NCBI GenBank assembly: GCA_963784995.1
Contig: CAWATZ010000006.1
Coordinates: 8,853-72,852 of the forward strand
Source: an uncultured Planctomycetota bacterium
GTDB taxonomy: Bacteria > Planctomycetota > Planctomycetia > Gemmatales > Gemmataceae
Length of the DNA stretch: 64,000 nt
Reading direction: 5' to 3'
In this document: positions 28,008-51,134 of the stretch, in pieces
Layout of the letters: every line of letters starts with the position of its first letter
How positions within the stretch are numbered: position 1 is the stretch's first letter
Position numbers and translations under genes: made by a program
Notes under the pieces: generated by a model
Told to the model about the DNA's origin: nothing
Databases searched by the model: none
What the model saw: only the letters and a program-made list of their open reading frames with translations

Positions 28008-31596
<3,589 letters not shown>

Positions 31597-31995: not shown

Positions 31996-33595
31996 ATGAG
32001 CTGGTTGAGCAAATTCTTCGGAAGGTCCCCGGACCCCCTGAAGCCACCCCCCGGCACCGTTCCGGCGACCCTGTCCCTCGTGCCGGGGCAACTTTCCGTG
32101 CGGGTTTGCCGGCACAGCATCCCCAATGGTGCCGAACAAATCCCCTGCTGGACCTACGTTACAGACGGGCTCTGGAAACTCGGCCAGAAGGAGTTGATCT
32201 TCTCGCTGCGCCGCCGGCCGGAAGAGGAGCCCCAGGCCTTTCCGCAAGATCCAGTGCAGTTCTTCCTGCAAGTGCATCGCCTGGCCCAGGAGGGGCGGCT
32301 CGGTCGATGCCGGCGGACACACGTGCTTGCGCAGCCCCGCGGGCTTCCTGGGTACGACCGAGCTGACGGGATTCACTTACGTCCGGCCTGAGCTGCTCCC
32401 GGGAGTGGAGTTGCCTCCTCTGGACCGCGCCCTCACCGCGCTGCTGCTGACGAAAGAGGAGGCCGAGGTGGTTCAGACCCTTGGCGGCTACCGTCTGACC
32501 GCGCTGCTGGGAGACAGCACCCGCTACTACCCCTGTCCTCCCTGGTCGGAGCGCGGCCGGCGTCCGGTCCTCACCCCGCACGACCTGGCACAGAGCCTGC
32601 TCGGGAAGATGCCCCTGGCCGGTTGCCCGGCCGGCTTTGCCCGCATGTTCCTGCCGCCGCAGGCGCCGACTCCTCCGGGGGTGGACCGGACCCTGCCGGA
32701 AGTCGGCAAGCGCATCACGCTCTTCCTGCCCGAGGAGGTCAGGGCGCAGCTCCAGGAAGCATTGTCGCCCTTCCCCGAGAGCTGGGCCCTCGCCTTGCTC
32801 ACTCAGCCGGACCCGGAAGCGAACGTCCGCCTGGTCTGGCGACCGGGGGACCGGGAGATTCGGACCATCACGCCCCACCACAGTGACGGCAGTTGCCTGA
32901 CGGGCGGCTTTGTCGCGCTGGTGGCCGAGCCCTCGCTTCCCGAGGGAGCGCGGGTGGCCGAGGACGGCTTCCTGGCGGCGTTCGGCCCGACCAATCAGGC
33001 CCGCTTTCGGGAGGCCATCTCGACCGGACAGCCCTTCGTCCTGCCGCCCGCTCAACCGGACCTGGCCGAGTTCTGCCTGGAATGGCTGCCCGCGAAGCCT
33101 TCGCAAGCGCCGGCAAGCCCGGCAGGGACCGAGGCGCCAGACAAGACGGCAGCATTTTTCGTCCATCAGATCATGCTCTATCAGCCGGACGAAGTGCTGC
33201 GTCAGCGTGTCGGCAACGTGTCGATCCTGGGTTCCTTCTTGAAGCGCGTGGAGGAGGAAGCCAATCAGTTCTGGTCCGCGCTGCCGCCTGGGGAAAGCCG
33301 GGCCGTGCTCCTGGTCGTGGCCCTGCGACCCGGAGGCCGCAGCCGCTTCTGGCCGGAGGAGAATCCCCCCGGTCTGGATCGAAGGTCAGTGGAAGAAGTC
33401 GTGGCGCGGCTGCAACGCTTGCCGCCGCCCCTGGTGCATAGCGGGCCGGTGGCCGTGGCGCTCCAGGCGTCGCTGTGGTCCCAGGGCGGCAAGCCCGGAG
33501 GCTGGCCCTTCATCCCCACGGAATGGCAGCAAGCCTGCGGCCAGGAGAACCTCCTGGTCCCCGATGGCGTCCTGAAGATCGTCTGGCCCGAGTAA
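31996..33595 (+). CDS. hypothetical protein (apparent frameshift near 32296-32310; may instead be two genes)
   Basis: MSWLSKFF start with SD. The frame with protein-like composition switches at ggggcggctcgg. The C-terminal 35 aa plus 3' flank are repeated at 42003-42127. Confidence 0.45.
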
Positions 33596-33685
33596 GCTCC
33601 GTCCCTTTGCGGAACCAGGGAGTTGAGATAGAATCATCCAGACCCGGAGAGGTGCCGGAGCGGCCGATCGGGCCGGTCTCGAAAA
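33581..33685 (+). repeat. direct repeat X: last 15 bp of gene, intergenic region, and 5' 40 nt of tRNA-Ser (attL-like)
   Basis: About 97% identical to 48512-48616. Identity ends exactly at the anticodon loop (..ggtctcgaaaa). Confidence 0.7.
33646..33685 (+). pseudogene. truncated tRNA-Ser 5' half (acceptor 5' strand, D-arm, anticodon stem-loop only)
   Basis: ggagaggtgccggagcggccgatcgggccggtctcgaaaa, then diverges. Confidence 0.7.
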
Positions 33686-33770
33686 GCGATACCCAGGTTT
33701 TTCGCACCTCCCGCAAAACACGTCAAACCCCTGCAATTTCAGGGGTTTTCGCATTTCCCGGCTTTCTCTC

Positions 33771-36082: not shown

Positions 36083-38650
36083 TCACGAGCCTTTCTGCTT
36101 CAGCCCACTTTTGGTTACTGAGATGTGCCCTGTTGTCATGTCAATGTCAAACTGCTTCTTGACGTACTCCTGGATAGCAGTAGGCCCTGCATCTGGCCCC
36201 AATGCCGTCAGCGCACGACGAACCGCCTCAATCTTAGTAATCTCTTCCTGTTGCCCCTGCCTTATTGTTTCGATCCCCGGAGCTGTCTGTGAGCTGCCAA
36301 TCCTTGCTTGACCTTTACCTGGCACCATACCCCGTGCCACTTCCAACTGCTTGATCTGGTCCTCTGTAAGGGCTGCCGGCTCCCCCTCCCAACCATTTCG
36401 TCCCTTATACATCTGAGCGCGGATAGACGAATCAGGGACTGTTTCCAGAGCGAGGTTATTCAAGGCATTTCGGGCATCCTGGAAAGACCAGCCCTCACGT
36501 CCCATCCACATCAGCACTCTCTTGACAGGGTAGCCGAAGAGTTGATACCGCTGCGCACCCATAGTCAGGGTGGCACCCTTCTTGCCCAGCCGGGTAAGGA
36601 CTTCCCCTTTGCCGGTCAGTTCACGCCATCTTTTCCCACCAGGCCCGCTGGCCCGTAGAGCCGCTTCGAGGTGGGCAATGTGTTCAGGAGCCAGCTTGGC
36701 ATGTTTCCCCTGACCCTTGCGTCCGAAATACAGGCAGGTGTTGATACAGCCGTCGCTGACCATCTCCCGCTTCAAGTGGTTCAAGGTAGGCCGAGCGTCT
36801 TTGTATGTCCAACCATGAGCGCCCATCCACCGGATGACCGAAGAGACTGAGAATCGTCCAAACAAGGGAGGAATCTTGCCGGTCCCGCCATCCTTATCTC
36901 CACCATTCACGGGCCCCTTGTCTTTTCCTTGTGGTATCGCGAGGTCGTCTAGGTGGGGAATTAGGGCTTTCTCCAGCCGAATCATCGCGTCGATCATAGC
37001 ATCCTGAATCGCTGGCCATTTCGACTCCTGGCTCTCGTAGCCGCCAAGTGTGATGAGGTGAGCAATGCGGTAAGCCTGCTTCTGCTGGCGGCGGCGCCAG
37101 AACAACTTGCCGCCGAATGTCTTCTCGATCTCTTCCTTTTGGCAGTGTAGATACCGGAAAATGTACTTGTTTTCCTGCTCCTTCCCTGCTCCACGGTTGA
37201 TATACAACTCGACACGACCCCGTTGCTGTTGGATGACGTAGACGAAGGGCACTCCCCGCAAGCCGAAACTGGCCCTGATAAATTGGGACTCGCCAGGGGT
37301 GATGTTTGTGTGCAGCGTAGTCTTCACTTTTGGACGGCTGAGAAGCCCTTGCCAGAATCTTTCGGCCGTCTTGTTGGACGAGGAGATAATACCGGAGCCA
37401 GGATCTGCGGGAGGCGGGAGAAGTTGATCTACGGGTAATAAGCCCGGAACGGACCCTGCTGGCGTCCAGGCAGGCATGCCAGGTTTCCAAATCAATGAAG
37501 CCTGGGTCAATTGGCCTCCCTGGTGCAACCGGCGCAACTCATCTGCAAGGACAGGACCACGCGAAACACCGCTTGCGTCAAGATAATGCCAGAGGTCAAC
37601 CAGCGGAGGACTCACTCCTTCCGAGGGACCAGCAGGCTTCGGTCCTGTCGGTGGCGTGGGAACGAGGCTGCTGATCCGGTCTGCCAGGGCGGCGGCGTCT
37701 TTCGGCCGATCCTCGGGATTATGCTCGAAGCACTGCTCCAACAGCGCTATCATCTCCGCAGGAACACCTTGCTCGGCGAACCTCTTCTTCCACGCCCCTC
37801 CGAGCGGAGGCTCCTTGGTAGGATCGCCCATCAGCAGCTGATACCACATCACTCCCAGGGCATGAACGTCGTCACGGGGGTCCGCTTGATCGCCTGCCTT
37901 CTGCTGCGGTGAGGCATACAGCGGAGTGCAGGAACCGTGGGCCATCGTCGCCAGCAGATCCCCCTTGCTCGTCGTCCCATAGCGCTCGGCGAGCACTTGC
38001 GTCTCAGCTACTATTGCTCCGATACCGAAGTCAGCAACAAGGAAAGTCCACCGCCCCTCTTTCGTTCGTCTGGCCAGCACGTTGGCTGGTTTTAGGTCTC
38101 GGTGGATCACTGGAGGGGATAAGCGGTGCATCCTGCCGACCGTCTCGGCCAGTACGCGAATGATAGTGCGGGCTTGTTCGACCCGCTTCTCGGTAGGTAA
38201 CTTCTGCATGCGCCGGATCAGGCTGGTCAGGTCTCCACCCTCAATGTACTCGTATTCCAGGCAGATCGGTTCGGTGTCGAGATAGGCATTCTTGAGCGTA
38301 ACGATCCCTTTCTCGACCTTTTGCATCATGACTTGATCGAGTAGAGCTGCTTCATGACGCAACGATGTTGCAGCCGTTAGATCCAGGCAGAATTTAAGAG
38401 CGACAGGCGGAATGCCTTTGAACTGGGTATGCTGGGCCTTCCAGACCTCCCCAAAGCCGCCGACACCGAGCAACTGGGTCAGTTGCCAGGGGACGCCTGG
38501 TAACGGTTTGTCTCCGACCTTGAACCTTGGCAAGCGGGACGGCAACAGCGGAACCAGATCCTTTGCACTTTTGAGCGTGAAGTAGCTTGGCACGGTGGTT
38601 CCGGTCGGATCTTCGGGCCGGCGGAACGAGCTGCGAATCCAGCCCGGCAC
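36083..38650 (-). CDS. Ser/Thr protein kinase fused to a DUF4268-like domain and C-terminal repeat domains
   Basis: LGVGGFGEVWKA, HRDLKPANVL, DFG. YINRGAGKEQENKYIFRYL...KEEIEKTFGGKLFW resembles DUF4268. Two about 65-aa repeats (VIRWMGAHGWTYKDARPTLNHL... / VLMWMGREGWSFQDARNALNNL...). GC about 55%. Confidence 0.8.
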   Translation of the reverse strand: MPGWIRSSFRRPEDPTGTTVPSYFTLKSAKDLVPLLPSRLPRFKVGDKPLPGVPWQLTQLLGVGGFGEVWKAQHTQFKGIPPVALKFCLDLTAATSLRHEAALLDQVMMQKVEKGIVTLKNAYLDTEPICLEYEYIEGGDLTSLIRRMQKLPTEKRVEQARTIIRVLAETVGRMHRLSPPVIHRDLKPANVLARRTKEGRWTFLVADFGIGAIVAETQVLAERYGTTSKGDLLATMAHGSCTPLYASPQQKAGDQADPRDDVHALGVMWYQLLMGDPTKEPPLGGAWKKRFAEQGVPAEMIALLEQCFEHNPEDRPKDAAALADRISSLVPTPPTGPKPAGPSEGVSPPLVDLWHYLDASGVSRGPVLADELRRLHQGGQLTQASLIWKPGMPAWTPAGSVPGLLPVDQLLPPPADPGSGIISSSNKTAERFWQGLLSRPKVKTTLHTNITPGESQFIRASFGLRGVPFVYVIQQQRGRVELYINRGAGKEQENKYIFRYLHCQKEEIEKTFGGKLFWRRRQQKQAYRIAHLITLGGYESQESKWPAIQDAMIDAMIRLEKALIPHLDDLAIPQGKDKGPVNGGDKDGGTGKIPPLFGRFSVSSVIRWMGAHGWTYKDARPTLNHLKREMVSDGCINTCLYFGRKGQGKHAKLAPEHIAHLEAALRASGPGGKRWRELTGKGEVLTRLGKKGATLTMGAQRYQLFGYPVKRVLMWMGREGWSFQDARNALNNLALETVPDSSIRAQMYKGRNGWEGEPAALTEDQIKQLEVARGMVPGKGQARIGSSQTAPGIETIRQGQQEEITKIEAVRRALTALGPDAGPTAIQEYVKKQFDIDMTTGHISVTKSGLKQKGS

Positions 38651-39418: not shown

Positions 39419-39781
39419 TCAGAAGGGCAACCACTCGATTCGATTGTCCCATTCGGCCGGATCGCTTGCCAAGGCAACCATCGCGATGGCCTCGATAGCG
39501 TTAGCAATCAAAGTCCAGGGCTTTAAGACAAAGACACCTGGCATGGGTAGCCCCTGATCGACCCGTTCCAGGGCGAAACTGAGCATGGTACTCTTGTCAT
39601 TCGTGAGTAGAATACGGTTCTGTTCGGCAGCCCAGGCCAAGACGAGCGGGTCAGTAGCCCCATCCCTCCCGGACAGGCCGACAACATCTTGGGCGCGTAT
39701 CAAATCCACGGCTGGGTGGTGCCTGCGTACCCCATCAACCACTCGACCATCGAAGTCCTCATCACTCAGCAGGCGAAGCAT
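39419..39781 (-). CDS. DUF5615 (PIN-like) family protein, putative toxin
   Basis: MLRLLSDEDFDGRVVDGVRRHH...ILLTNDKS pattern. Confidence 0.6.
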   Translation of the reverse strand: MLRLLSDEDFDGRVVDGVRRHHPAVDLIRAQDVVGLSGRDGATDPLVLAWAAEQNRILLTNDKSTMLSFALERVDQGLPMPGVFVLKPWTLIANAIEAIAMVALASDPAEWDNRIEWLPF

Positions 39782-40544
39782 TGGTGGCTTTCCTCCTCGC
39801 CCAGCGATCCTTGATTTGCGCTTTCAATTCCGCATTCGATGGTTGAGAAGCCTCGATCTTCTGTCGCAACTCCTCCGCTTCCCGCTTTCGCCGGGTCAGG
39901 TACTCATCAACAACATCTCGATAGCGGAGGTAGTAGGCAATGACTTCCTGAATTTCGGCCAATTGGAGAGTGTCGTAACCTCTGGCTATGTCTTCTGGCG
40001 ATGCCCCAGCCTTGAACTCGTTAATGATCGTGTCGAGGCGGACACGCGACCGGCCCGCGTAGATGTCGGCGTGTTCATCCATGTACACCGGGGCAACACT
40101 CATCGAACCTAGTTGCCCCGGCAGCGGGTATTGCCAACCAGCAAGCGCTTCGCGGCGCAACCTTTCCAGATCCAATAAGACGGCGGTCAACTGCTCGGCT
40201 CTCGGCAACGGCTTACCGCCAAGCACGGCTGCCCGTTCCGCCAGGAGTTGCGCATCCTGCACGATGCCGAAACATTGCTGCAAGCTATGGAGGAAAGCAC
40301 CGTGGACGGCGCGTGCGGCCTCGACTTGGCCCTGCTCAATTGCGTGGCGCAAGCCGTCCCATTTCGACCGAATCTTCGCTGGAAGATCCAGGGCGGCGTT
40401 AACGAACTCTTGGGTATGTTGAATGAATGCACTCGCATCGACTTGCACACGCTCGCGGGCCGAGGCGGCATTGGCGAGGGGAGTATCGAGTAAGGCCGTC
40501 TCTTTCATTGGACCAGTTCCTTTCCAGGGTTGTGGAATGGCCAA
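39762..40544 (-). CDS. DUF433-domain protein with N-terminal extension, putative antitoxin partner
   Basis: C-terminal GRSRVRLDTIINEFKAGASPEDIARGYDTLQLAEIQEVIAYYL is DUF433-like. 20-bp overlap with DUF5615. Confidence 0.55.
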   Translation of the reverse strand: MAIPQPWKGTGPMKETALLDTPLANAASARERVQVDASAFIQHTQEFVNAALDLPAKIRSKWDGLRHAIEQGQVEAARAVHGAFLHSLQQCFGIVQDAQLLAERAAVLGGKPLPRAEQLTAVLLDLERLRREALAGWQYPLPGQLGSMSVAPVYMDEHADIYAGRSRVRLDTIINEFKAGASPEDIARGYDTLQLAEIQEVIAYYLRYRDVVDEYLTRRKREAEELRQKIEASQPSNAELKAQIKDRWARRKATNASPAE

Positions 40545-41767: not shown

Positions 41768-42002
41768 CCTCGCTCACCGGCAATTATCCTGACCGTCACG
41801 GATTTTGGGGGAGTGCCAAAAGAGGGCCCGAAGGGACGGCGTGTGTTGGTGGCGTGTTGGCGGTGTCGCTTTTTTGTCATCGGTGGGGCAAGCACGGACA
41901 CGCCGGGGCGCCTCCTGGCCAGACCGCCAGCATTTTGCGCCGTTGGCGGTGTGGCGGCCTCACCCCTTGGGGCTCGGCGTTCCCTCCTGTGGTACGAGGG
42001 CC

Positions 42003-42127
42003 GCAAGCCCGGAGGCTGGCCCTTCATCCCCACGGAATGGCAGCAAGCCTGCGGCCAGGAGGACCTCCTGGTCCCCGATAGCGTCTTGAAGATCGTCTGG
42101 CCTGAGTAACCGCCGTCCCTTTACGGA
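42003..42127 (+). repeat. repeat Y: orphan copy of the last about 105 bp of gene 31996..33595 plus about 20 bp 3' flank
   Basis: About 94% identical to 33488-33614. Encodes ...GRKPGGWPFIPTEWQQACGQEDLLVPDSVLKIVWPE*. Confidence 0.65.
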
Positions 42128-42326
42128 AGAATTTCGGCCGCCAGCGATTTCCCGCCCAGGCAGGCCTCAAGCGGATCCACCCGGGCCAACAGGTGGCGAG
42201 CCAACTCAGGCCGGGTGCGGACTGCCTGTCGTGCCAGTTCGTTGTTGTCCGTCGTCATGCCGACTCCTCTGGGGATGCCGTCAATGGGAAAGTATCTGTG
42301 CAAGTCCGAAGATTTCGGACGGCGTG

Positions 42327-43280
42327 TTAGCATCCCTGGTGAGGCACTGCACGAACTTGAGGGCACGCATCAGAGTAGCCAGGAGTTCCGCACGGCTCGG
42401 GCGATGGGGTTGCCTGACTGTACTCCAGTGTCCGCCTGAGCAGATCGCAGACGACGACCCCCCCTTTGTTCTGCCGGACCTGCCGCCAGACCCGGTAGCC
42501 GGCCAGGATCGCCTTCTGCCACTCGTACAGTGAGCAGGATCGCACTTCCCTGTCGGACACAATCCCTTGAATGGTCTTTAGCAGCGGGTAATCAAGCGTT
42601 TGCACGCCATCGAGGTAGTCATGCTTGCGGGCGTAATCGTACACGATGGCGGAGATGGCTTCCTCCACGATCTTGGCCCTTGCCCCGTCCTCGACCTCGT
42701 CCACCTTCGGCTTGCTCTTCCGCTTCCGCTTCAGCAGCGACCGCATCATGGGAGACCACCCGAGTATGGCCGCGTGGGCGAGGTGGAACACGTCGTGGAA
42801 TCGGTAGCCGTCGTCCTCGTAAGCGTTGTCAGTCAATGGGTCCCCGATGGCCTTGTCCCCGAGCCAGCAGCGGACTTTCACCTTGTCCCCGATTCTTTCC
42901 TCCCTGATTAGTATCTCGAAACGTCGGGGGAGTTGCTCTTGATCGGGGGAGTCCTCATCGAACAGTCTGCTGGGTTCTGCCCCGCCGCTCGGCCAGCGGT
43001 TCTGAGTCTTCTTCAGGTTGGCCACAGCGACCTCACTCAGGTCCAGATCAAACTTGGTAGCCACGTCAGCGACATACCACAGCAGGTCGCCCAACTCCTC
43101 CGCCATCTGCTCCTTGAACAGCAGGTGGGCGTTCCCGTCCCTGAGATGTTTCTTGTACTCCGCCAGGAGCGTGCCAACCTCGCCGGCCAGCCCCAGCAGA
43201 GGGATCAAGATTCCCCTCTCGTCGTGTGCCGGCGACTGGTCCGTTTCTCCGGCCTTTAACTGGTACTCGCGGAAGTGCAT
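42327..43280 (-). CDS. MazG-family nucleotide pyrophosphohydrolase with about 200-aa C-terminal extension
   Basis: LKAGETDQ...LLGLAGEVGTLLAEYKK...MAEELGDLLWYVADVATKFDLDLSEV is the MazG EExxE/D core. Confidence 0.75.
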   Translation of the reverse strand: MHFREYQLKAGETDQSPAHDERGILIPLLGLAGEVGTLLAEYKKHLRDGNAHLLFKEQMAEELGDLLWYVADVATKFDLDLSEVAVANLKKTQNRWPSGGAEPSRLFDEDSPDQEQLPRRFEILIREERIGDKVKVRCWLGDKAIGDPLTDNAYEDDGYRFHDVFHLAHAAILGWSPMMRSLLKRKRKSKPKVDEVEDGARAKIVEEAISAIVYDYARKHDYLDGVQTLDYPLLKTIQGIVSDREVRSCSLYEWQKAILAGYRVWRQVRQNKGGVVVCDLLRRTLEYSQATPSPEPCGTPGYSDACPQVRAVPHQGC

Positions 43281-43348
43281 GTGTATTCTCTTGAGCAGTA
43301 GGTCAGGGCGACTAACTCCGACAGCGACTTGCACCACGTCTAGCCCTG

Positions 43349-44631
43349 TCACAACTTCAACGCTTGGGTCAGGTAAGCAGCTGCGGCAACAACGAAGCGG
43401 ACGGCCGCCTGCTGGTTGCCAAGTTGCGGCGCGAACCGCAGAAGGCCCAACCCTACAAGGAACAGCGGCACGAGGTACTCGCGGTCCCAGTCTGTCCCGG
43501 AAGGGAAGACCTCCGCTGCCTTCCGGCGGAGCCGCTGGATCAGATCGACGCGACCCTTTAGGTAGGCCCCCAGGTCCGCAGGGGGCGTCTGGTCCCAGGC
43601 GATCCAGGTGCTGAATGACTCGATCTCATCCCCGCGAACCTCGGTCCGGAGGGTCAAGAAGCGGAGATTGCACTCAAGCAGGACGAAGTCCTTCGCGATG
43701 TGCGCCTCTCTTGTGCCCACCCGAAGTCGATGATCGTCGGTGCCCCTCGGGTCTTGAGGATGATGTTGCCAGGGTGCAGGTCGCCGTGGATCGCACCCCG
43801 ATACAGACGGAACAGCTTGGGCCTCAGCTGTTCCACCACCCAGAGCGGGTTGACAGTCTGCCCGCCAGAAGTGAGGGCGAACTTCTCTCCGGTCTTACCC
43901 CAGACTTCGGCCCAGGCGTCACCCCATACCGTCCCAAGGCCTCTCAAGTACCACTCGTATTCCTTACCCACCTCCACCTCGTCGGCAGAGGCGGTCCCGA
44001 ACCGCCGGTGGAAGTTACCGAGAAGGTTGAAAGCGGCCTCAAACGTCGATCCCGCCCGGTCGTTGTCGCCATCTTTCAGAGGCTTGCGGAGGTCTTCGAC
44101 CTCGAACGCCGGGGCAGCCGTCCCCGCAGCGGGGCTGACGAGCGGTACGGAGCCTGTGGCAGAACAGATCGACCACAAGATCCTGTAACCGGTTTGATCC
44201 TCGTCGAAGAGGATGGGGATGGCGAAGTTGTCCTTGGAGTCGTAGGCGAACGGTTTGATGCTCAGGGCGTTCTTGTACTCATCGACAAGCTTGTCGGACT
44301 TGCTGCGGTCCATGGTTTTGACGACAAGCGGGTGCGAGCACAGGGTGCCCGGTTCCTCGAAGGAGAAATGGCCGATCAAGACCAGGCTCCCGCTCTTACC
44401 CTCCATCTGGCCGATGCGGCTGAGGGGAATGAGGGTCAGCCTGACGGCCTTGTCGTGCGAGTCTCGATACTCAGGCAGCCCGAGAGCGGGCCAGACCGCC
44501 TCCTGGAACCCCCAGACGGCCTCGGCCCCTTGCCCGCCCCGAATCTTCGCCATGAGTTGTTCCGCGGAAAGACGGATGGCATCCAGCCGGTCCGCTTCCG
44601 TGGCCTCAAAGTTCACCTTCAGGGACACCAT
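43349..44631 (-). CDS. aminoglycoside-phosphotransferase / protein-kinase-like fold kinase (frameshift at about 43660-43690 in a G-run)
   Basis: IHGDLHPGNIIL...IIDFGW is an APH/ChoK catalytic loop plus DFG. Frame switches between ORFs 43654..44631 and 43349..43720 at ttcgggtggg. Confidence 0.6.
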
Positions 44632-44652
44632 GTTCAGTTCCTTGGGTGGTGC

Positions 44653-46419
44653 TTACCTTGGCCGCTCATCTTGTCGTTGGGCCGCCTCGACAGCCTCATT
44701 GATGCCCCATTTGGGCGGATACCAGAGGCTGAGTGGATTCGAGTGGGGCCTGTAGGTCTGTTTGATCCGCGTCCGGCCGCTGATTCCCTGGACCTCAGGG
44801 TGGGCCAACCGGGCGTACTTGTCGGTTTCGCAGAATAGGTTCTGGCAGTCGATCAGCTGCAAGGGGCGACCCCACAGGTCGCGGAACGGGATGCCCAGTC
44901 GCTCCAACTCCCGCTCTTGGTTGTCGGCCACCCAGCGGATGATGTCGGCCTCGCTTAGACCGCCCAGGCTGGTGAAGCACTTGCGGATGCCGTCGCGAGC
45001 CCCCGGCCCCGGCACCACGAACTGCATCTCCGTGAAGTTGGTGAGGGTGCTGTAGTTCAGATCGGTGACATACTGATAAGCCAGGAAGTCGCCGATCATC
45101 GGGTAGGAGACGACCAGCTCGAACGCTTGCCGCATGTTGCGGCAGGCAGCGATCCGCCTGGGCAGGGCATCTTGCATCATTTTCTGGAGCAGGCGGAGAT
45201 GGCTGCGGTGCTTGCGGTGGTTCTCATAGTCACCTGAGCCCGAAGGCATGATGTACGCCCCGGAATAGATTGCCTGCCCCCTTTCCAGGGCACGGTCGAA
45301 CACCGCCGCATACCGTTCGAGGTCGAAGTCCGCATACCGGGGCGTACCCAGCTCCTGCTCCAGCATCTCCCAGGTCTCAACCTTGTTGAACAGCTTGAAC
45401 ATGATCGTGCGGAAGAACACCTCTTCCGCCGCCTGGTCATGCTGGTAGATGACCTTGCGGATCAGGTACTGGCTGACCCGGTCAGAGGCCCGGTAGGCGT
45501 TGCAAAACTTGTACCGGGCAATGATTGGGTCGCTCGTCAGGGGCTGCATTCCCTCCAGCCGGCGGAAGAAAACCTCCTGCCGTTCCGCCGCGAACTTCCA
45601 GTAGGTACTGTACACCTCCGATGGCCTCGCTGGAGCCATCGGACAGATGACCTGCGGCGGTGGCCGTTCCTCAGGGGTTGGCCTGGCGGGCGGTGACTCT
45701 GCCTTGGCCGACAGCAGCGAGAACAGGTCGGGCACCTCGCGTGTCGGCGTGGTGCGGCGGGTGGTCGCCTTGCCCGCTCTCCCCGACCTTCTGGGGGCGG
45801 CGACCCGGTAGCGGACGCCGTCGATTGCCTCGATGGCTAGACGAACGGCGTCGGCAACCGTCCCCTCGTTGTCAAGGCGGACGACGCAGTGGCGGGCCTC
45901 CTCCGCCAAGGCCAGCTCATGGTAGGCGGGCAGCAGCTTCGACCCGAGGTCCGTCGGCTCGCTCTCCTCGCAACGGGAGGGCCGCTGGACAAGGAACACC
46001 ACCGCCGGCTCCACGTTGCCCCACTCCGCTCTCTCCATGGCGATCATGGCGTCAAGCGTCTTGGGAGCAGCCCCGCTGGCAAGGCCGTAGGCCCAGGTGG
46101 ACCACCAGAAACGGTCCAGCACCACCCAGCGGCCTCCGGTGAGGGCCGGCAGGATTCGGCCGGCGATGGCGGCGAGGTGAGCCGCGACGTGCAACAGTTG
46201 GAGGCTGGCTGGGGGGATGTTCGCAATACCGAACAGGCCGGGGTCGTGGTGCAACTGGTAGACGTGCCAGCCCAGTGTGCCGGGCTCGCGGCCGGGGAAT
46301 GCCAGCAGGTCACAAGGCGTGCCGCGGCCGCTCAGCACAGCAGCGACCTCTTTCGCCAGGGTGCTCTTGCCGACTCCGTCAGGCCCCTCGAAGACGATCA
46401 ACTTACCCGGCGTTGCCAT
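44653..46419 (-). CDS. thymidylate-kinase-like P-loop kinase fused to about 400-aa domain of unknown function
   Basis: LIVFEGPDGVGKSTLAKE (Walker A) and VVLDRFWWSTWAY (Tmk DR[Y/F] lid motif). C-terminal 400 aa with no recognised motif. Confidence 0.7.
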   Translation of the reverse strand: MATPGKLIVFEGPDGVGKSTLAKEVAAVLSGRGTPCDLLAFPGREPGTLGWHVYQLHHDPGLFGIANIPPASLQLLHVAAHLAAIAGRILPALTGGRWVVLDRFWWSTWAYGLASGAAPKTLDAMIAMERAEWGNVEPAVVFLVQRPSRCEESEPTDLGSKLLPAYHELALAEEARHCVVRLDNEGTVADAVRLAIEAIDGVRYRVAAPRRSGRAGKATTRRTTPTREVPDLFSLLSAKAESPPARPTPEERPPPQVICPMAPARPSEVYSTYWKFAAERQEVFFRRLEGMQPLTSDPIIARYKFCNAYRASDRVSQYLIRKVIYQHDQAAEEVFFRTIMFKLFNKVETWEMLEQELGTPRYADFDLERYAAVFDRALERGQAIYSGAYIMPSGSGDYENHRKHRSHLRLLQKMMQDALPRRIAACRNMRQAFELVVSYPMIGDFLAYQYVTDLNYSTLTNFTEMQFVVPGPGARDGIRKCFTSLGGLSEADIIRWVADNQERELERLGIPFRDLWGRPLQLIDCQNLFCETDKYARLAHPEVQGISGRTRIKQTYRPHSNPLSLWYPPKWGINEAVEAAQRQDERPR

Positions 46420-47230
46420 TGTCCCCTCCCGCCCCGGTTTCCTGCTGTACGAGCTGGGCCTGCCCCTGGAGCAGCCCTTGCAGGTCCGCTGCGAACACCT
46501 GCAACTGGGTCTTCGCCACGCCTCCCAGACGGGCCGTACTGATGTTGCAAGTGAACTGCGTCAGCTCGCGGTTCACCTGACCGGCAACAAATTGACCGAG
46601 CCGGTATAGCCCCAGGTAGTTCCCGTACCCCTTCTCGAAGAGGAACTGGATTGGGTAGGAGGCATTGATGGCCAGCCCACCCCGGTCGAGCGGGGTAAAG
46701 GTGACATGGTGCAGACAAGGGAAGCCGCGGCGACGTTGTCGGGTGTGGTCCCTGGCGGGGTCGAACACGTTCGCCACAAAGGCCGTTGGGCGGCGGACGC
46801 CCTCCCCCCAGATCCGGATCAGGTGCTCAATCTGGTTACCATCTACGGGGCGGTCGCCTCCGAAGGCGATCATTCGCTCGAAGTACTGCCCGTTCCGATT
46901 TTCACGCCGCCGGAGCAGCCTGGGCAGCATCCGCTGATACCTGCCATACAGGGCGTGCCGGTCGCTGCTCCGTTCCCAGAGATTGCTGGGGAAGATGGTG
47001 TTGGCGACCGTGTGGCACTCGTACAGGCCAAGCCGCACAAGCTCTTGGTCCAGGCGGTTCCGGATGCTCGCGACCTCAGCCGGCACGCCGTCCTCCATAC
47101 CGGTAATCTCGATGAACAGCGGGGAGATCCCATTCACGCCCCGCCGCATGAGAGCCAGGAAAGCCCTGGCCCACGCGATGCTCAGGTTGGACTCACGGAT
47201 CAAGGGCATCATCGTCCTCCTCTGGCTCAT
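46403..47230 (-). CDS. thymidylate-synthase-fold protein (ThyA / dNMP hydroxymethylase superfamily), divergent
   Basis: DGNQIEHLI, RRPTAFVANVFD and RRRGFPCLHHVTF align with ThyA DGRHIDQI / SRRIIVSAWN / LAPCHAFFQFYV, including the catalytic Cys. Weak overall similarity. Confidence 0.5.
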   Translation of the reverse strand: MSQRRTMMPLIRESNLSIAWARAFLALMRRGVNGISPLFIEITGMEDGVPAEVASIRNRLDQELVRLGLYECHTVANTIFPSNLWERSSDRHALYGRYQRMLPRLLRRRENRNGQYFERMIAFGGDRPVDGNQIEHLIRIWGEGVRRPTAFVANVFDPARDHTRQRRRGFPCLHHVTFTPLDRGGLAINASYPIQFLFEKGYGNYLGLYRLGQFVAGQVNRELTQFTCNISTARLGGVAKTQLQVFAADLQGLLQGQAQLVQQETGAGGDNGNAG

Positions 47231-48068
47231 GTCGGAATCGCGCCCTGCCGGCGAAGCCCTGCCGCGACACGCGAACGAAGCTGGCCCAGCCGGTTTCGGG
47301 GTTCAGCAGCCGCCCCCGGCCCGGCTTTCTGCCCCGGAAGATCCTGTCGAACAGGAAGCTGGTGTCGATCATCACACAGGCCCCTTCGTGGACGACACCT
47401 GGCGGGCACAGGATCGCGTCCCCAGCCTGGATGTCGATGGCACGGTCCAGCCAGTTGTCGCCCGCCACGACGAGGTGATGTGGGCAGTCGGCCCCCAGCA
47501 GACCCGACTTGATCGTCCTGGGTGCCACCTTCTGAAGGGCCAGGGCACGGGTGCGTTCGAGCAGGCGGAGGTTGAGCCACACGTGGGTGACGAGGGCTTC
47601 GTAGCCCACGCCCAGCCAGGTAGCCACCTCGTAAACCTGCTCAGCCGTCGCGTCTCCCGGAGAACATCCGCGTAGCTCGAAACCCCGAACCACGGCCGGT
47701 CTGGGCATGAGCAGGAAGCCGCTGAAACACTCGGCCAGGAACTCCTCCTCGCTGTCTTCCTGTCGCTCGCTGTCATGCACCTCGTCGATCCTGGAGCCGT
47801 GACCATAGACATGGTGTCCCAGCTCATGGCCGCCGGTATAAGCCTGCCGCCCCGGCGGTCGCAGGCTCGAGATGACCATGCTGGGGCCGGGAGTCTTGAC
47901 GTACGTGCCCTCCAGGCGGGGGATGGCTTTGAACCAGACATCGACCCCCATCCCCTCCGCGAGATCGTAGACGCAGAGGGGCACGTCAAGGCCGAGCCCG
48001 GCATCACGGCGGACGCGACATGCACGAGTCAGGGCGTCCCTGGCCAACCGCCGCTTGTCGAGGGTCAT
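47193..48068 (-). CDS. ImmA/IrrE-family metallopeptidase (DUF955) with C-terminal extension
   Basis: HELGHHVYGH HExxH motif. 4-bp overlap with the XRE gene. Confidence 0.75.
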   Translation of the reverse strand: MTLDKRRLARDALTRACRVRRDAGLGLDVPLCVYDLAEGMGVDVWFKAIPRLEGTYVKTPGPSMVISSLRPPGRQAYTGGHELGHHVYGHGSRIDEVHDSERQEDSEEEFLAECFSGFLLMPRPAVVRGFELRGCSPGDATAEQVYEVATWLGVGYEALVTHVWLNLRLLERTRALALQKVAPRTIKSGLLGADCPHHLVVAGDNWLDRAIDIQAGDAILCPPGVVHEGACVMIDTSFLFDRIFRGRKPGRGRLLNPETGWASFVRVSRQGFAGRARFRHEPEEDDDALDP

Positions 48069-48412
48069 CCCTCCTCCTTCCGCTTGAGGCTTGCAAGGAG
48101 CTGCATCAGCTGGTCAAGGTCTTCCTGCCTCATGGTACTCAGCTTGCGGGCTGCCATCTCATAGCGGACTCGGCTCATGTCGCCGGCATCACCATCGAGC
48201 AGCCAGGCAACGCTCACGCCGTAGGTGTCGGCCAGCGTAGCCAGCTCCTCGGCGGAAACGCTCCGACGGCCAGCCTCCATCTCGGAGACCGACGGGCGGT
48301 GGAGCCCCAGTAATCGGGCGACCTGACCCTGCGTCAGGCCAGCCTGTTCGCGGGCAGCCTTGAGCCGGGAGGCGATTGCCATCCTCTTCTCGCTGGCGTC
48401 CACGGCAACCAA
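48065..48412 (-). CDS. XRE-family helix-turn-helix transcriptional regulator
   Basis: LTQGQVARLLGLHRPSVSEMEAGRR HTH. Confidence 0.8.
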   Translation of the reverse strand: MVAVDASEKRMAIASRLKAAREQAGLTQGQVARLLGLHRPSVSEMEAGRRSVSAEELATLADTYGVSVAWLLDGDAGDMSRVRYEMAARKLSTMRQEDLDQLMQLLASLKRKEEG

Positions 48413-48434
48413 TCCTCAATATGAGTGTAATAGT

Positions 48435-48456
48435 AATCTTACCGCTAGGTAAGATT
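48435..48456. promoter_or_regulatory. palindromic operator candidate aatcttacc-gcta-ggtaagatt in an AT-rich promoter region upstream of the XRE gene
   Basis: Perfect 9-bp inverted repeat 23-44 bp upstream of the XRE start. Confidence 0.45.
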
Positions 48457-48511
48457 ATCTTACACGAGGTGTAGGCAACAAGTCAAGGGCAATCGGCCGT
48501 CCTGGCCGAAC

Positions 48512-48616
48512 GTCTGGCCCGAGTAAGCTCCGTCCCTTTACGGAACCAGGGCGTTGAGATAGAATCATCCAGACACGGAGAGGTGCCGGAGCGGCCGATC
48601 GGGCCGGTCTCGAAAA
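48512..48616 (+). repeat. direct repeat Z (attR-like), partner of 33581-33685
   Basis: See repeat X. Confidence 0.7.
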
Positions 48617-48663
48617 CCGGTGTGGCAGCAATGCTACCGAGGGTTCGAATCCCTCCCTCTCCG
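48577..48663 (+). tRNA. tRNA-Ser (anticodon CGA), class II with long variable arm
   Basis: GGAGAGG acceptor. Anticodon stem-loop CCGGT-CTCGAAA-ACCGG. Variable arm TGTGGCAGCAATGCTACC. T-arm GAGGGTTCGAATCCCTC. 3' CCTCTCCG. No encoded CCA. Confidence 0.9.
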
Positions 48664-48695
48664 CTTTTTCCACACCGGCGGCTAATCTCCGCTCG

Positions 48696-48948: not shown

Positions 48949-49890
48949 TCAGAACGGGATTTCGGACTCGTCAGATGGCTTCGGCGCCTGGCACCCTTGT
49001 GCCGAGGACGGAGTAAACCCCAATGCGGGTGCCAGTGTCCCTTCGCGGAGGTATCTCGCGTAGCGCCGGTATTGATACGCTAGATTCGAGTTGATGATAA
49101 TCTGGCACCACTCGCGGAGGTTGTCGCTCAGTTCCGAGTTACCGCAAATCGTGGACAAAGACGGCACACCGTCCATCAGGAGGGCGGCAAGCTCGTTATA
49201 GAGGTCAGCTCTTCCGGAGCCTCGAACAGACCTGGCATAAATGGCGAACCGGCCCTTGTGCTGCTGCTTCGACTTGTTCACGAGGTCCAGGAGCGATTCC
49301 TTGGGAAACACATACGGGTCAATGATAGCCCGCTCCACATGACTTATGGAGAGCCTTCCGGATGTGACCGTACAACTTACCTCAGGGTCGGCAGCCTGCG
49401 GGTACTTCTCTTGCAGTTTTGCCCTGAACTTGGTGAACGTGCTTTTCGGATACCCCTCCTCGGCTGGGTGTTCAAAAAGAAAATCGACCTCTTCTATCGT
49501 TTTCAACGCCTCCGAGTCCCGTCTGAAACCCGCTGCGCCGGCAGATCGCAAGCAGACCGCGACATCAGTAGCCTCCAAGAGCGCCTCCGGGCGTAGCTGT
49601 AGTGCAATCGGCCCGTATGGATTGGGAACGCCCTTGCCGCCGTTTGCAAACGTGCGGCCAAAATCAGACAGGTTCACGAATACCTTGTCCCACACGCAGT
49701 TGGTGTGGTCCGTCCCATCCGTCTCGAAGGCCGTGAAATGCTGTTTGCCCACTTCCAGGCAGGCCCGCGATGGAATCCCGCCGACTGCCAAATATGACGA
49801 AAAATCTGCGAGTTGGCAGGCGTGATAAAGCGACGCACGCCGGCTTGTCAGCAGGTTTACGAGCTTGGCAATCTGTCCCTCTCGGATCAT
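48949..49890 (-). CDS. hypothetical protein (lower GC)
   Basis: 313-aa ORF with protein-like composition. GC about 55%. Confidence 0.5.
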   Translation of the reverse strand: MIREGQIAKLVNLLTSRRASLYHACQLADFSSYLAVGGIPSRACLEVGKQHFTAFETDGTDHTNCVWDKVFVNLSDFGRTFANGGKGVPNPYGPIALQLRPEALLEATDVAVCLRSAGAAGFRRDSEALKTIEEVDFLFEHPAEEGYPKSTFTKFRAKLQEKYPQAADPEVSCTVTSGRLSISHVERAIIDPYVFPKESLLDLVNKSKQQHKGRFAIYARSVRGSGRADLYNELAALLMDGVPSLSTICGNSELSDNLREWCQIIINSNLAYQYRRYARYLREGTLAPALGFTPSSAQGCQAPKPSDESEIPF

Positions 49891-49926: not shown

Positions 49927-50826
49927 TCACAAGGTCCGGGGGACGACCTGTAACCCGCAGACTTCAGTCTCCAGATGTTGCCGCAGGGCCGTTGCCTCTG
50001 TACTCAGCAGTTCTGCAACAAGAGGCCGAAGGGTCTGCCACAGAGTTTGGGCCGTCTCTGGCGTAAGACCCACTTGCTTGAGCCGCCACCGAGTTTCTCG
50101 CTCCCACCAATAGGAAGGCGAACTGTCGTTGGCGAGGGCACTCTCGCAGTAGAAACTCACCCACATTACTTGGCGTACTGGCAGCTTCAACCTCTTTGCG
50201 ACCTCCCGCAGAGCCGTCTTGCCGGCAGGGGTATGCTTATCCAGGGCGACCCAATAAGGTAACGCGCTATTGGTGGATTCGCTGCGGGATACTACGGGAA
50301 CGTCATGAGTGACGGCGAGGTAAGCCGCGGCCTGCATGAAGGCCCGGTCCCAAGGCCACCCCCCACCCTTGTAGGCTTTGTAGGCCGCGTCAACGAGCAT
50401 CCTCTGTTCGTCAGCCAACTCTCGCTTTAGCACCCAGGGCCAGAAATCTTTGGGCCTCTGAATCGCATTCAGCACGATCCGAATGTCTCGGTCTTCAGGG
50501 CATCCATCGAAGACCGTTTCGTCATCTTTCGAGAGAGCGTATGCCAGAGTTCCCAGCCCGGCTGCATCCTTAACCTTTACATGCCGGGCAACGCACCCCA
50601 GGGCCTCAACTGACTTCTCCGGGTCCGGCTTTTGGGGTAGCAGCCCACCCAGCGGCCAGCACTCCTCAAACGTGATGACGGCAGCTCTGCTCCTGAGCCA
50701 AGTGCCATCGCCGATCTCCCGAAGATGGGCGGCAACCTTGCCGATGAGGGCTTCTTCTCCGCGCCTTACCGCCTTCTGAAGCAGCGACCGGCATACCTGG
50801 TGCGTGTCGGCGCTTGGCTTTCTCAC
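49927..50826 (-). CDS. hypothetical protein (lower GC)
   Basis: GTG start with SD aaggag 6 nt upstream. Confidence 0.45.
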   Translation of the reverse strand: MRKPSADTHQVCRSLLQKAVRRGEEALIGKVAAHLREIGDGTWLRSRAAVITFEECWPLGGLLPQKPDPEKSVEALGCVARHVKVKDAAGLGTLAYALSKDDETVFDGCPEDRDIRIVLNAIQRPKDFWPWVLKRELADEQRMLVDAAYKAYKGGGWPWDRAFMQAAAYLAVTHDVPVVSRSESTNSALPYWVALDKHTPAGKTALREVAKRLKLPVRQVMWVSFYCESALANDSSPSYWWERETRWRLKQVGLTPETAQTLWQTLRPLVAELLSTEATALRQHLETEVCGLQVVPRTL

Positions 50827-51134
50827 GGTTACTCCTTCTGCCCTTGGTAGAGTTAGCGGGCAATGCGAAGCCAGCCGCCGGTTCAAGCTGACCTGGACTT
50901 TACGGTGCGCTGACTTGCAGTTCAACGACAAACAGCGATTTTTGTCTACAGGCCAACAATACAAGTGTATAGAAAGTCAGAAAGCCGAAGAAGCCCAGCA
51001 GCCAGATGAGACTCCTCAACCGTCCGACAGCACGATTCTGCCGGTGCGCTGGAGGGAATGCGGGCGGTTGGGTCGGGAACGCAATTGGTTCCCAGATGGC
51101 GGCTACCCCTCACCCACCCTTTCTTCCCAGCGCG

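Follow-up and report, generated by a model that had tools for sequence, protein, structure and literature searches.

The operon and its putative regulatory switch

The subject of this study is a six-gene operon in a 64,000-nucleotide (nt) stretch of contig CAWATZ010000006.1 (GenBank assembly GCA_963784995.1, positions 8,853 to 72,852; hereafter the window) from an uncultured bacterium of the planctomycete family Gemmataceae. Its genes, all co-directional on the minus strand between 42327 and 48412, code in order for an XRE-family helix-turn-helix (HTH) protein, an M78 peptidase, a divergent thymidylate synthase (TS)-fold protein that we call TSL, a fusion of a thymidylate-kinase-like (Tmk-like) P-loop domain with an HMUDK_hel domain, an APH/TCAD9-like kinase, and a MazG protein with a MazG_C domain (Table 1). 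The operon is a conserved variant of a recently validated family of anti-phage systems, typified by DS-4 of Escherichia coli, and is not categorically new. An initial annotation made from the letters of the DNA had proposed these six minus-strand open reading frames (ORFs), and we recovered all of them at the positions in Table 1; their domain matches lie far above chance, leaving no doubt at the level of sequence that the genes are real. The overlapping or near-abutting junctions proposed along with them hold from XRE through to the kinase (-4, -38, -17 and +21 nt, in order) but probably not for MazG: because its relatives measure 300-317 residues, its start probably lies at 43280, and the junction with the kinase would then be a gap of ~68 nt with no overlap.

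Table 1. Coordinates of the operon genes, their domains and the associated DNA elements in the window
Feature	Position	Strand	Evidence and remarks
XRE-family HTH repressor, CapH/ImmR/DdrO-like	48065..48412	-	HTH_3 8.7e-17 (Pfam); capH 6.6e-17 (PADLOC)
M78 zinc metallopeptidase, CapP/ImmA/IrrE-like, HELGH motif	47193..48068	-	Peptidase_M78 1.1e-7 (Pfam); capP 7.4e-12 (PADLOC)
TSL, predicted divergent thymidylate-synthase-fold enzyme, 275 residues, no Pfam family	46403..47230	-	probable start 47209
Tmk-like fusion protein, whole ORF	44653-46419	-	
Thymidylate-kinase-like P-loop domain of the fusion, residues ~5-205	45805..46407	-	PF02223 (Thymidylate_kin) 2.2e-11 (Pfam); TIGR00041 1.5e-12; PDB Tmk chains 1e-7
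HMUDK_hel / aGPT-Pplase clade 1 domain of the fusion, residues 268-544	44788..45618	-	HMUDK_hel 6.4e-110 (Pfam)
APH/TCAD9-like kinase, HGDLHPGN and DFG motifs	43349..44631 (first ORF 43654-44631)	-	-1 frameshift near 43705
MazG (DCTPP1-like all-alpha NTP pyrophosphohydrolase) fused to MazG_C	42327..43352	-	MazG_C 1.7e-78; MazG 2.4e-6; probable start 43280
Promoter-like site TTGACT-18-TAAGAT, sigma-70-like, just upstream of the operon	48436..48486	-	promoter scan
Left 38-nt direct repeat bracketing the module	42091..42128	+	34/38 positions identical to 48508-48545
Right 38-nt direct repeat, immediately before the promoter and gene of tRNA-Ser	48508..48545	+	
Third copy of the 38-nt repeat	33577-33614		beside truncated tRNA-Ser 5' half and duplicated gene end

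An ImmR/ImmA-type pair had been proposed at the head of the operon, and the XRE protein with its HTH_3 domain and the M78 peptidase with its HELGH signature are indeed found there. In the CapH/CapP, ImmR/ImmA and DdrO/IrrE pairs, too, an XRE HTH protein and an M78 HExxH peptidase together head immune-type operons (10.1101/2022.04.27.489752; PMC13228613), and in the case of CapP single-stranded DNA (ssDNA) stimulates cleavage of the repressor, whereby the immune operons are derepressed (PMC13228613). In the canonical arrangement capH and capP are encoded upstream and on the other strand (10.1101/2022.04.27.489752; PMC13228613), whereas in the window the pair opens the operon itself and is translationally coupled to it, with a 4-nt overlap between the two genes and a further overlap of M78 with TSL. 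Reading of the sequence upstream revealed two perfect operator-like palindromes, GTAAGAT-A-ATCTTAC and ATCTTACC-TAGC-GGTAAGAT, which overlap the -10 element of the promoter-like site; the XRE protein presumably binds the GTAAGAT palindromes over its own promoter.

TSL, a divergent protein of the thymidylate synthase fold

Fold comparison places TSL within the TS fold and not outside it, in agreement with the initial annotation, an assignment that sequence methods alone did not settle. The catalytic cysteine in a PC motif and the RR motif noted earlier are both present (GFPC172 and R146-R147), and an alignment of 36 homologues revealed that GFPC172, R147, Y116, Q133 and N204 are invariant. In a weak profile match C172, R147, Y116 and Q133 align with C146, R127, Y94 and Q111 of ThyA; N204 corresponds to ThyA N177 in an ungapped reading, while hhalign, on this weak match, puts N204 elsewhere. 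Clustered at 50% identity, the family comprises 1,424 representatives. None of our searches with TSL recovered a match in Pfam, PHROGs, PADLOC or a profile search of PDB sequences, and NCBIfam gave a single sub-threshold match (TIGR03283, 20.7 bits against a cutoff of 174.55). TSL would add to the known TS-fold families one that current domain libraries miss. TSL gave no PF00303 or NCBIfam ThyA match above cutoff, and we considered and dropped a housekeeping thyA/tmk/mazG reading of the operon. Since TS-fold enzymes catalyse several modifications, namely the methylation, hydroxymethylation or hydroxylation of pyrimidine mononucleotides (PMC13326640), the fold is compatible with more than one product of TSL.

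The fusion protein, the accessory kinase and MazG

The N-terminal part of the fusion protein proved to be a Tmk-like P-loop kinase, as first annotated, with no match to PF18748 (the 5-HMUDK kinase) at E-values up to 0.1. The ~400 residues that follow, earlier termed a domain of unknown function, contain the Pfam domain PF18723 (HMUDK_hel), which is labelled 'aGPT-Pplase clade 1' in a phage record; the aGPT-Pplase families had been suggested for comparison with this region, and it belongs to exactly that family. Only the clade-1 family matches in the window, where no clade-2 aGPT-Pplase (the amino-acid:DNA transferase) was found. In an M6-like phage, a clade-1 homologue of the window domain adjoins a gene at the position of gp54, the 5-hydroxymethyldeoxyuridine (5-hmdU) DNA kinase of phage M6, an equivalence assigned by position and size only, as the record annotates the gene differently.

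Examination of the conservation pattern of the HMUDK_hel domain revealed a Cys-Glu pair in an FCExDKY motif (Cys530-Glu531 in the window), which is kept in 78 of 78 homologues and is also present in DS-4C of the DS-4 system and in the phage clade-1 protein. The clade-2 protein of the M6-like phage has a cysteine at a similar C-terminal position. Lee et al., who characterised enzymes of this type, found the phage clade-2 cysteine and a nearby glutamate to be essential and proposed an attack on C6 of the base (PMC8989533). The HMUDK_hel domain adopts a helix-hairpin-helix (HhH) fold, having both this fold and the cysteine in common with clade 2.

For the gene called an APH-like kinase the family assignment stands (APH 4.3e-6, with a Pfam TCAD9 match of 2.2e-7 that lies below the curated cutoff), but the gene is not intact: one nucleotide is missing from a short run of G behind DFGWAQER, which breaks the frame near 43705, and the coding sequence resumes in ORF 43349-43720. 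Intact homologues of ~430-440 residues read through the lesion site (alignment to the related loci L006 and L029). A 99.5%-identical metagenome contig (L083) has the same lesion; it differs from the window by 14 indels over 9.6 kb and its fusion gene is also split. The frameshift may mark a true pseudogene or be an assembly error common to both contigs. The last gene codes, as proposed, for a MazG nucleoside triphosphate (NTP) pyrophosphohydrolase, and its translation displays the EExxE/EExxD motifs of the all-alpha NTP pyrophosphatases together with PF18722, which fits the MazG-MazG_C proteins. Its catalytic N-terminal domain is nearest to dCTP pyrophosphatase 1 (PDB DCTPP1 1.3e-4) and matches phrog_229 (5.5e-38).

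A fixed front end with variable back ends across bacteria

Scanning bacteria with one genome per species, we recovered related loci in at least 466 genomes from about a dozen phyla, among them Chloroflexota, Cyanobacteria, Acidobacteriota, Planctomycetota, Verrucomicrobiota and Proteobacteria; viral relatives amounted to 3 loci among 2.9 million IMG/VR contigs. At least five metagenome-assembled genomes (MAGs) of Planctomycetota carry the module, contrary to the earlier statement that it is not expected in a planctomycete. We then compared the architectures of 81 related loci, and the gene order, conservation of which had been anticipated for a four-gene core, is kept nearly invariant. The front end of the operon is fixed as XRE > M78 > TSL > HMUDK_hel (78, 80, 81 and 76 of the 81 loci, respectively), and the back end varies among enzymes of the pyrimidine pool. 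The more frequent variable parts are a fused Tmk (43 loci), MazG-MazG_C (34), a canonical TS (30) and a dCTP-deaminase-like protein (16); rarer ones are TIR (7), Nmad2 (5), a viperin-like radical S-adenosylmethionine (SAM) protein (5) and an APH/TCAD9-like kinase (2). These natural swaps of the back end point to pyrimidine deoxynucleotides as the currency of the system.

The exact gene combination of the window was not seen among the 81 loci; Tmk and MazG-MazG_C occur together in 8 of them, and the kinase with MazG-MazG_C in 2, one a Planctomycetota MAG. MazG-MazG_C is the only partner found past the front end in 23 loci, where TSL is then the only TS-fold protein. Further, we found single ORFs that join TSL, Tmk and HMUDK_hel (863 residues; L035, 7920-10508) or TSL, MazG and MazG_C (566 residues; L063, 7950-9647). 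These in-frame fusions, which may be natural or indel artefacts of MAGs, argue for one common pathway of TSL, Tmk/HMUDK_hel and MazG. Several relatives adjoin genes for type I restriction-modification (RM), SNF2/PLD, AAA_15/21 or Schlafen-like proteins.

The back-end gene in L003, L016, L028 and L078 (at ~9.8-11.5 kb in each) codes for a radical-SAM protein of 340-365 residues whose similarity to prokaryotic viperins in PADLOC is partial (2e-17 to 1e-10). The gene right after HMUDK_hel in L008, L014, L015, L024 and L034 codes for a dCTP-deaminase-like protein of 283-302 residues (PF22769, down to 3.7e-9), which matched no PADLOC depletion model.

Relationship to DS-4 and to phage pyrimidine modification

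DS-4, working name NTTI, was validated in the DefensePredictor study (Science 2026) as an E. coli operon of a TS, a deoxynucleoside monophosphate (dNMP) kinase, a PF18723 protein, TIR and Nmad2; against lambda it gave a -log efficiency of plating (EOP) of 0.93 (~8.6-fold less plating) with smaller plaques, and it is listed as replicated (PMC13092281). The same study lists aGPT-Pplase, MazG and MazG-C systems as predicted and unvalidated, and credits Burroughs et al. 2015 (its ref. 59) with an earlier prediction of defence via nucleotide modification, Nmad domains included. As represented there, the nucleotide-centric conflict systems of Burroughs et al. have aGPT-Pplase, MazG and MazG-C among their predicted domains, and all three are also in the window. 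With these domains predicted as defensive in 2015 and a sister architecture validated in 2026, the initial reading of the operon as an undescribed system is not supported.

The window operon and DS-4 are alike in having a P-loop kinase of dNMP type and a PF18723 protein, and the C-terminus of the fusion is 26% identical to DS-4C (E 1e-31). A TS fold occurs in both, without sequence similarity between TSL and DS-4A. The kinase is Tmk-like and fused in the window, whereas in DS-4 it is adenylate-kinase-like and separate, and a DS-4B-like kinase is absent from all 81 loci. In place of the canonical TS, TIR and Nmad2 of DS-4 the window has MazG-MazG_C and the APH/TCAD9-like kinase, and DS-4 as cloned is, unlike the window, devoid of XRE, M78 and TSL. 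Loci carrying both TSL and a canonical TS exist. In L085 a front half of the window type precedes genes for TS, TIR and Nmad2, all three with clear similarity to those of DS-4. L084 also has this DS-4 set, next to a type I RM system; it lacks XRE and M78, and all that it has of TSL is a short TSL-like remnant with a weak match (E 0.004). Given these two loci and the match to DS-4C, the window operon is the sibling of a validated architecture and not an orphan.

The T4 supply line for hydroxymethyl-deoxycytidine consists of the gp56 dCTPase/dUTPase, the gp42 dCMP hydroxymethylase and the gp1 dNMP kinase; it serves viral self-protection and has no HhH partner, repressor or protease, all three of which are present in the window. 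The enzyme logic of the window recurs in the thymidine hypermodification of phages M6, ViI, PaMx11 and SH-Ab 15599 (PMC8989533, PMC13458397), whose pathways employ a dUMP hydroxymethylase, a dTTPase/dUTPase, a kinase and a Pplase (PMC13458397). Common to both, by predicted enzyme type in the window, are a TS-family modifier of dNMPs, a pyrophosphatase of deoxynucleoside triphosphates (dNTPs), a P-loop kinase beside an aGPT-Pplase, the HhH fold and the conserved cysteine. The window domain is the clade-1 paralogue, found beside 5-HMUDK in M6-like phages, and the locus is without the clade-2 transferase, PF18748 5-HMUDK, and pyridoxal phosphate (PLP), radical-SAM or flavin adenine dinucleotide (FAD) tailoring enzymes of the phage clusters. 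Moreover, those clusters are viral, whereas the window locus is bacterial and controlled by a repressor and a protease.

A predicted pathway of inducible pyrimidine modification

We put at about even the chances that the locus is a chromosomal, mobile-cassette-borne anti-phage conflict operon of the DS-4 family which acts by steps of pyrimidine modification. The defence reading, already offered in the initial annotation, is backed by the kinship with the experimentally validated DS-4, and also by defence-island neighbours in several related loci and in the window. The function would most likely be the synthesis, upon damage or infection, and the handling at the DNA level of a non-canonical pyrimidine. 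Setting out from the observed gene content, folds, conserved residues, gene order and DS-4 kinship, we infer the trigger, every catalytic step and the target as follows. The XRE repressor, seated on the palindromic operator over its own promoter, would keep the operon low until infection or DNA damage yields ssDNA, upon which the M78 peptidase would cleave it, by analogy with CapH/CapP, ImmR/ImmA and DdrO/IrrE. MazG would turn pyrimidine dNTPs into dNMPs, which would both supply the dNMP and lower the canonical dNTP. TSL, with Cys172 as nucleophile, would attach a substituent at C5 of a pyrimidine dNMP, probably dUMP, because the uracil-specifying asparagine of ThyA appears conserved. The product of TSL would be phosphorylated by the Tmk-like domain, and perhaps also by MazG_C (a kinase by others' prediction) and by an intact APH-like kinase. 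Finally, the Cys-Glu HhH domain, a homologue of the phage 5-phosphomethyl-dU transferases, would act on the modified base, most likely after its incorporation into replicating DNA, so that the DNA of the invader would be spoiled. The pathway as a whole would parallel the pre- and post-replicative modification of thymidine in phages.

Several observations weigh against such a pathway. Equivalents of R166, D169, H207 and Y209 of ThyA are not evident in the TSL alignments, hhalign gives a probability of only 9% to the alignment of TSL with ThyA/DS-4A, and TSL and DS-4A are not orthologous (E 0.19 by BLASTP, not significant). The XRE and M78 genes are co-directional with the operon and not divergent as in canonical CapH/CapP, the accessory kinase is frameshifted in the window, and neither TIR nor Nmad2 was matched among the window ORFs that were run against Pfam and PADLOC, targeted searches for them having covered the related loci only. 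The phage clade-1 Pplase, M6 gp55, could be dispensed with in vitro, and no activity has been assigned to it. The phenotype of DS-4 is itself weak and was seen with one phage only (PMC13092281). To these is added the nearest structural neighbour of the HhH domain, QNG1, a nucleoside-5'-monophosphate glycosylase that acts on free nucleotide and not on DNA.

This last likeness is shared ground with the main rival to a modification pathway, namely depletion of the pyrimidine pool ('thymineless' immunity), which we regard as possible though doubtful. Here, once the operon is induced, MazG, and in other loci the dCTP-deaminase-like proteins, would drain pyrimidine dNTPs to dNMPs, TSL would mark dUMP and the QNG1-like HhH domain would destroy or divert the nucleotide, replication starving while the DNA stays unmodified. 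Nucleotide depletion is an established defence strategy, as in the dCTP deaminase and dGTPase systems. Depletion accounts equally well for the variety of back ends, with MazG-MazG_C, dCTP-deaminase-like, TS and viperin-like parts all belonging to the pyrimidine pool, and for the resemblance to QNG1; the proximity of the MazG N-terminal domain to dCTP pyrophosphatase 1 also agrees with it. It accounts less well for the kinase fused to the HhH domain, which is hard to fit in a pure drain; moreover, this domain has equally near structural relatives among DNA glycosylases and phage transferases that act on DNA, and no PADLOC depletion-system model matched.

That PF18723 and P-loop kinases are neighbours in phages making 5-hmdU DNA might instead indicate a defence directed at phages with 5-hydroxymethyl or otherwise hypermodified pyrimidines, in which MazG would hydrolyse the hydroxymethylated dNTPs, and the kinase and HhH domain would attack the 5-hydroxymethyluracil DNA. 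Enzymes of the DCTPP1-type MazG group favour 5-modified dCTPs, which would suit such a role. We nevertheless consider it unlikely: DS-4 acted on lambda, which has none of these modifications, and a dedicated TS-fold enzyme would be superfluous if the phage brings the modified base. The tight association of TSL with the switch, an overlapping junction tying it to M78 in essentially every locus, raises a still slimmer prospect, that TSL is a nucleotide-sensing partner of XRE/M78 and no pathway enzyme, with the downstream genes as effectors. DS-4-type sets that bring a canonical TS function in the absence of TSL, and only a remnant of it is left in L084; yet the invariant nucleophile cysteine and TS-like substrate residues suggest catalysis, TSL occurs in in-frame fusions with Tmk-HMUDK_hel and with MazG, and it is the sole TS-fold protein beside MazG-MazG_C in the 23 loci noted above. 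Least probable of all is a system for epigenetic marking or hypermodification of the bacterium's own DNA, or a decayed prophage modification cluster, with no immune role, for although the enzyme set mirrors phage thymidine hypermodification, direct repeats flank the cassette at a tRNA gene and one gene is frameshifted, TSL occurs in at least 466 bacterial genomes but in just 3 of the 2.9 million viral contigs, the locus lacks the clade-2 transferase, PF18748 kinase, PLP enzyme and phage structural genes, control by a repressor and protease speaks against constitutive marking of the genome, and the remaining five genes are intact and strongly conserved.

Returning to the modification pathway, we advance tentatively, and as a possibility short of an even chance, the more specific proposal that the chemistry of phage thymidine hypermodification has been turned into an inducible bacterial immune pathway, in which a fixed front end of a damage-sensing XRE/M78 switch, TSL and the HhH enzyme is combined with swappable pyrimidine-pool back ends, and a non-canonical pyrimidine made upon infection enters the replicating DNA of the invader and is converted there to a lethal lesion. 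The accessible literature gives no mechanism for DS-4-type systems or for the bacterial aGPT-Pplase and MazG-C operons, and the locus described here, along with its relatives, offers a compact and well-conserved version with a clear switch and two candidate catalytic cysteines. If a modified nucleotide is made, this would be a second cellular route, besides viperins, of poisoning viral nucleic-acid synthesis, and it might likewise explain what the clade-1 Pplase does in the hypermodifying phages.

Genomic setting of the operon

The module abuts a tRNA-Ser gene, as first noted: tRNA-Ser(CGA) occupies 48577-48664, at a distance of 165 nt from the first start codon (XRE). A promoter-like site (TTTACG-17-TAGAAT, 48537-48565, plus strand) is situated right upstream of the tRNA gene, inside the repeated segment and back-to-back with the operon promoter. 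The direct repeats listed in Table 1 are parts of longer duplications. The segment 33473-33614, which comprises the 3' end of ORF 32327-33595 and a spacer, matches 41987-42128 at 93%, and the segment 33577-33688 matches 48508-48619 at 96%. The latter consists of the spacer and the first 43 nt of tRNA-Ser; there is therefore a truncated tRNA-Ser 5' half at 33646-33688. On sequence grounds, the pattern of repeats suggests two successive insertions at the tRNA-Ser locus. Among ORFs of the 28-56 kb interval that were scanned with Pfam and PADLOC, neither an integrase nor phage genes turned up; a DUF1501 gene gives a slight hint of Planctomycetota or Verrucomicrobiota. We rejected the initial reading as a prophage remnant, the module being rare in viral contigs and phage genes not having been found around it. 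A low GC content, which had been ascribed to the whole island, applies to the flanks only (58.3% between 33.7 and 42.0 kb, 57.7% between 48.7 and 51.0 kb), the module itself being at 63.6% against 63.5% for the window.

The neighbouring GC-poor segment to the left contains a second defence candidate, an 855-residue protein (36083-38650, minus strand) combining a Ser/Thr kinase with GYF and DUF4268 domains, for which PADLOC recovered PDC-S11 (9.3e-39), mad6 (1.7e-34) and PD-T4-6 (1.7e-30). As this segment adjoins the module, the region looks like a small defence island. At 39762-40544 (minus strand) is a gene for a DUF433 protein, whose counterpart in the near-identical contig L083 has 362 residues with DUF433 and a weak match to DUF5615, a combination that would resemble a toxin-antitoxin pair or a fusion of the two. 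The GC-poor stretch on the right side of tRNA-Ser contains two minus-strand ORFs of 313 and 345 residues (48949-49890 and 49927-50964) with no Pfam or PADLOC match. A few kb from the island, at 28008-30677 on the minus strand, lies a gene for an 889-residue protein with AAA_16 and TPR domains in a STAND-like architecture.

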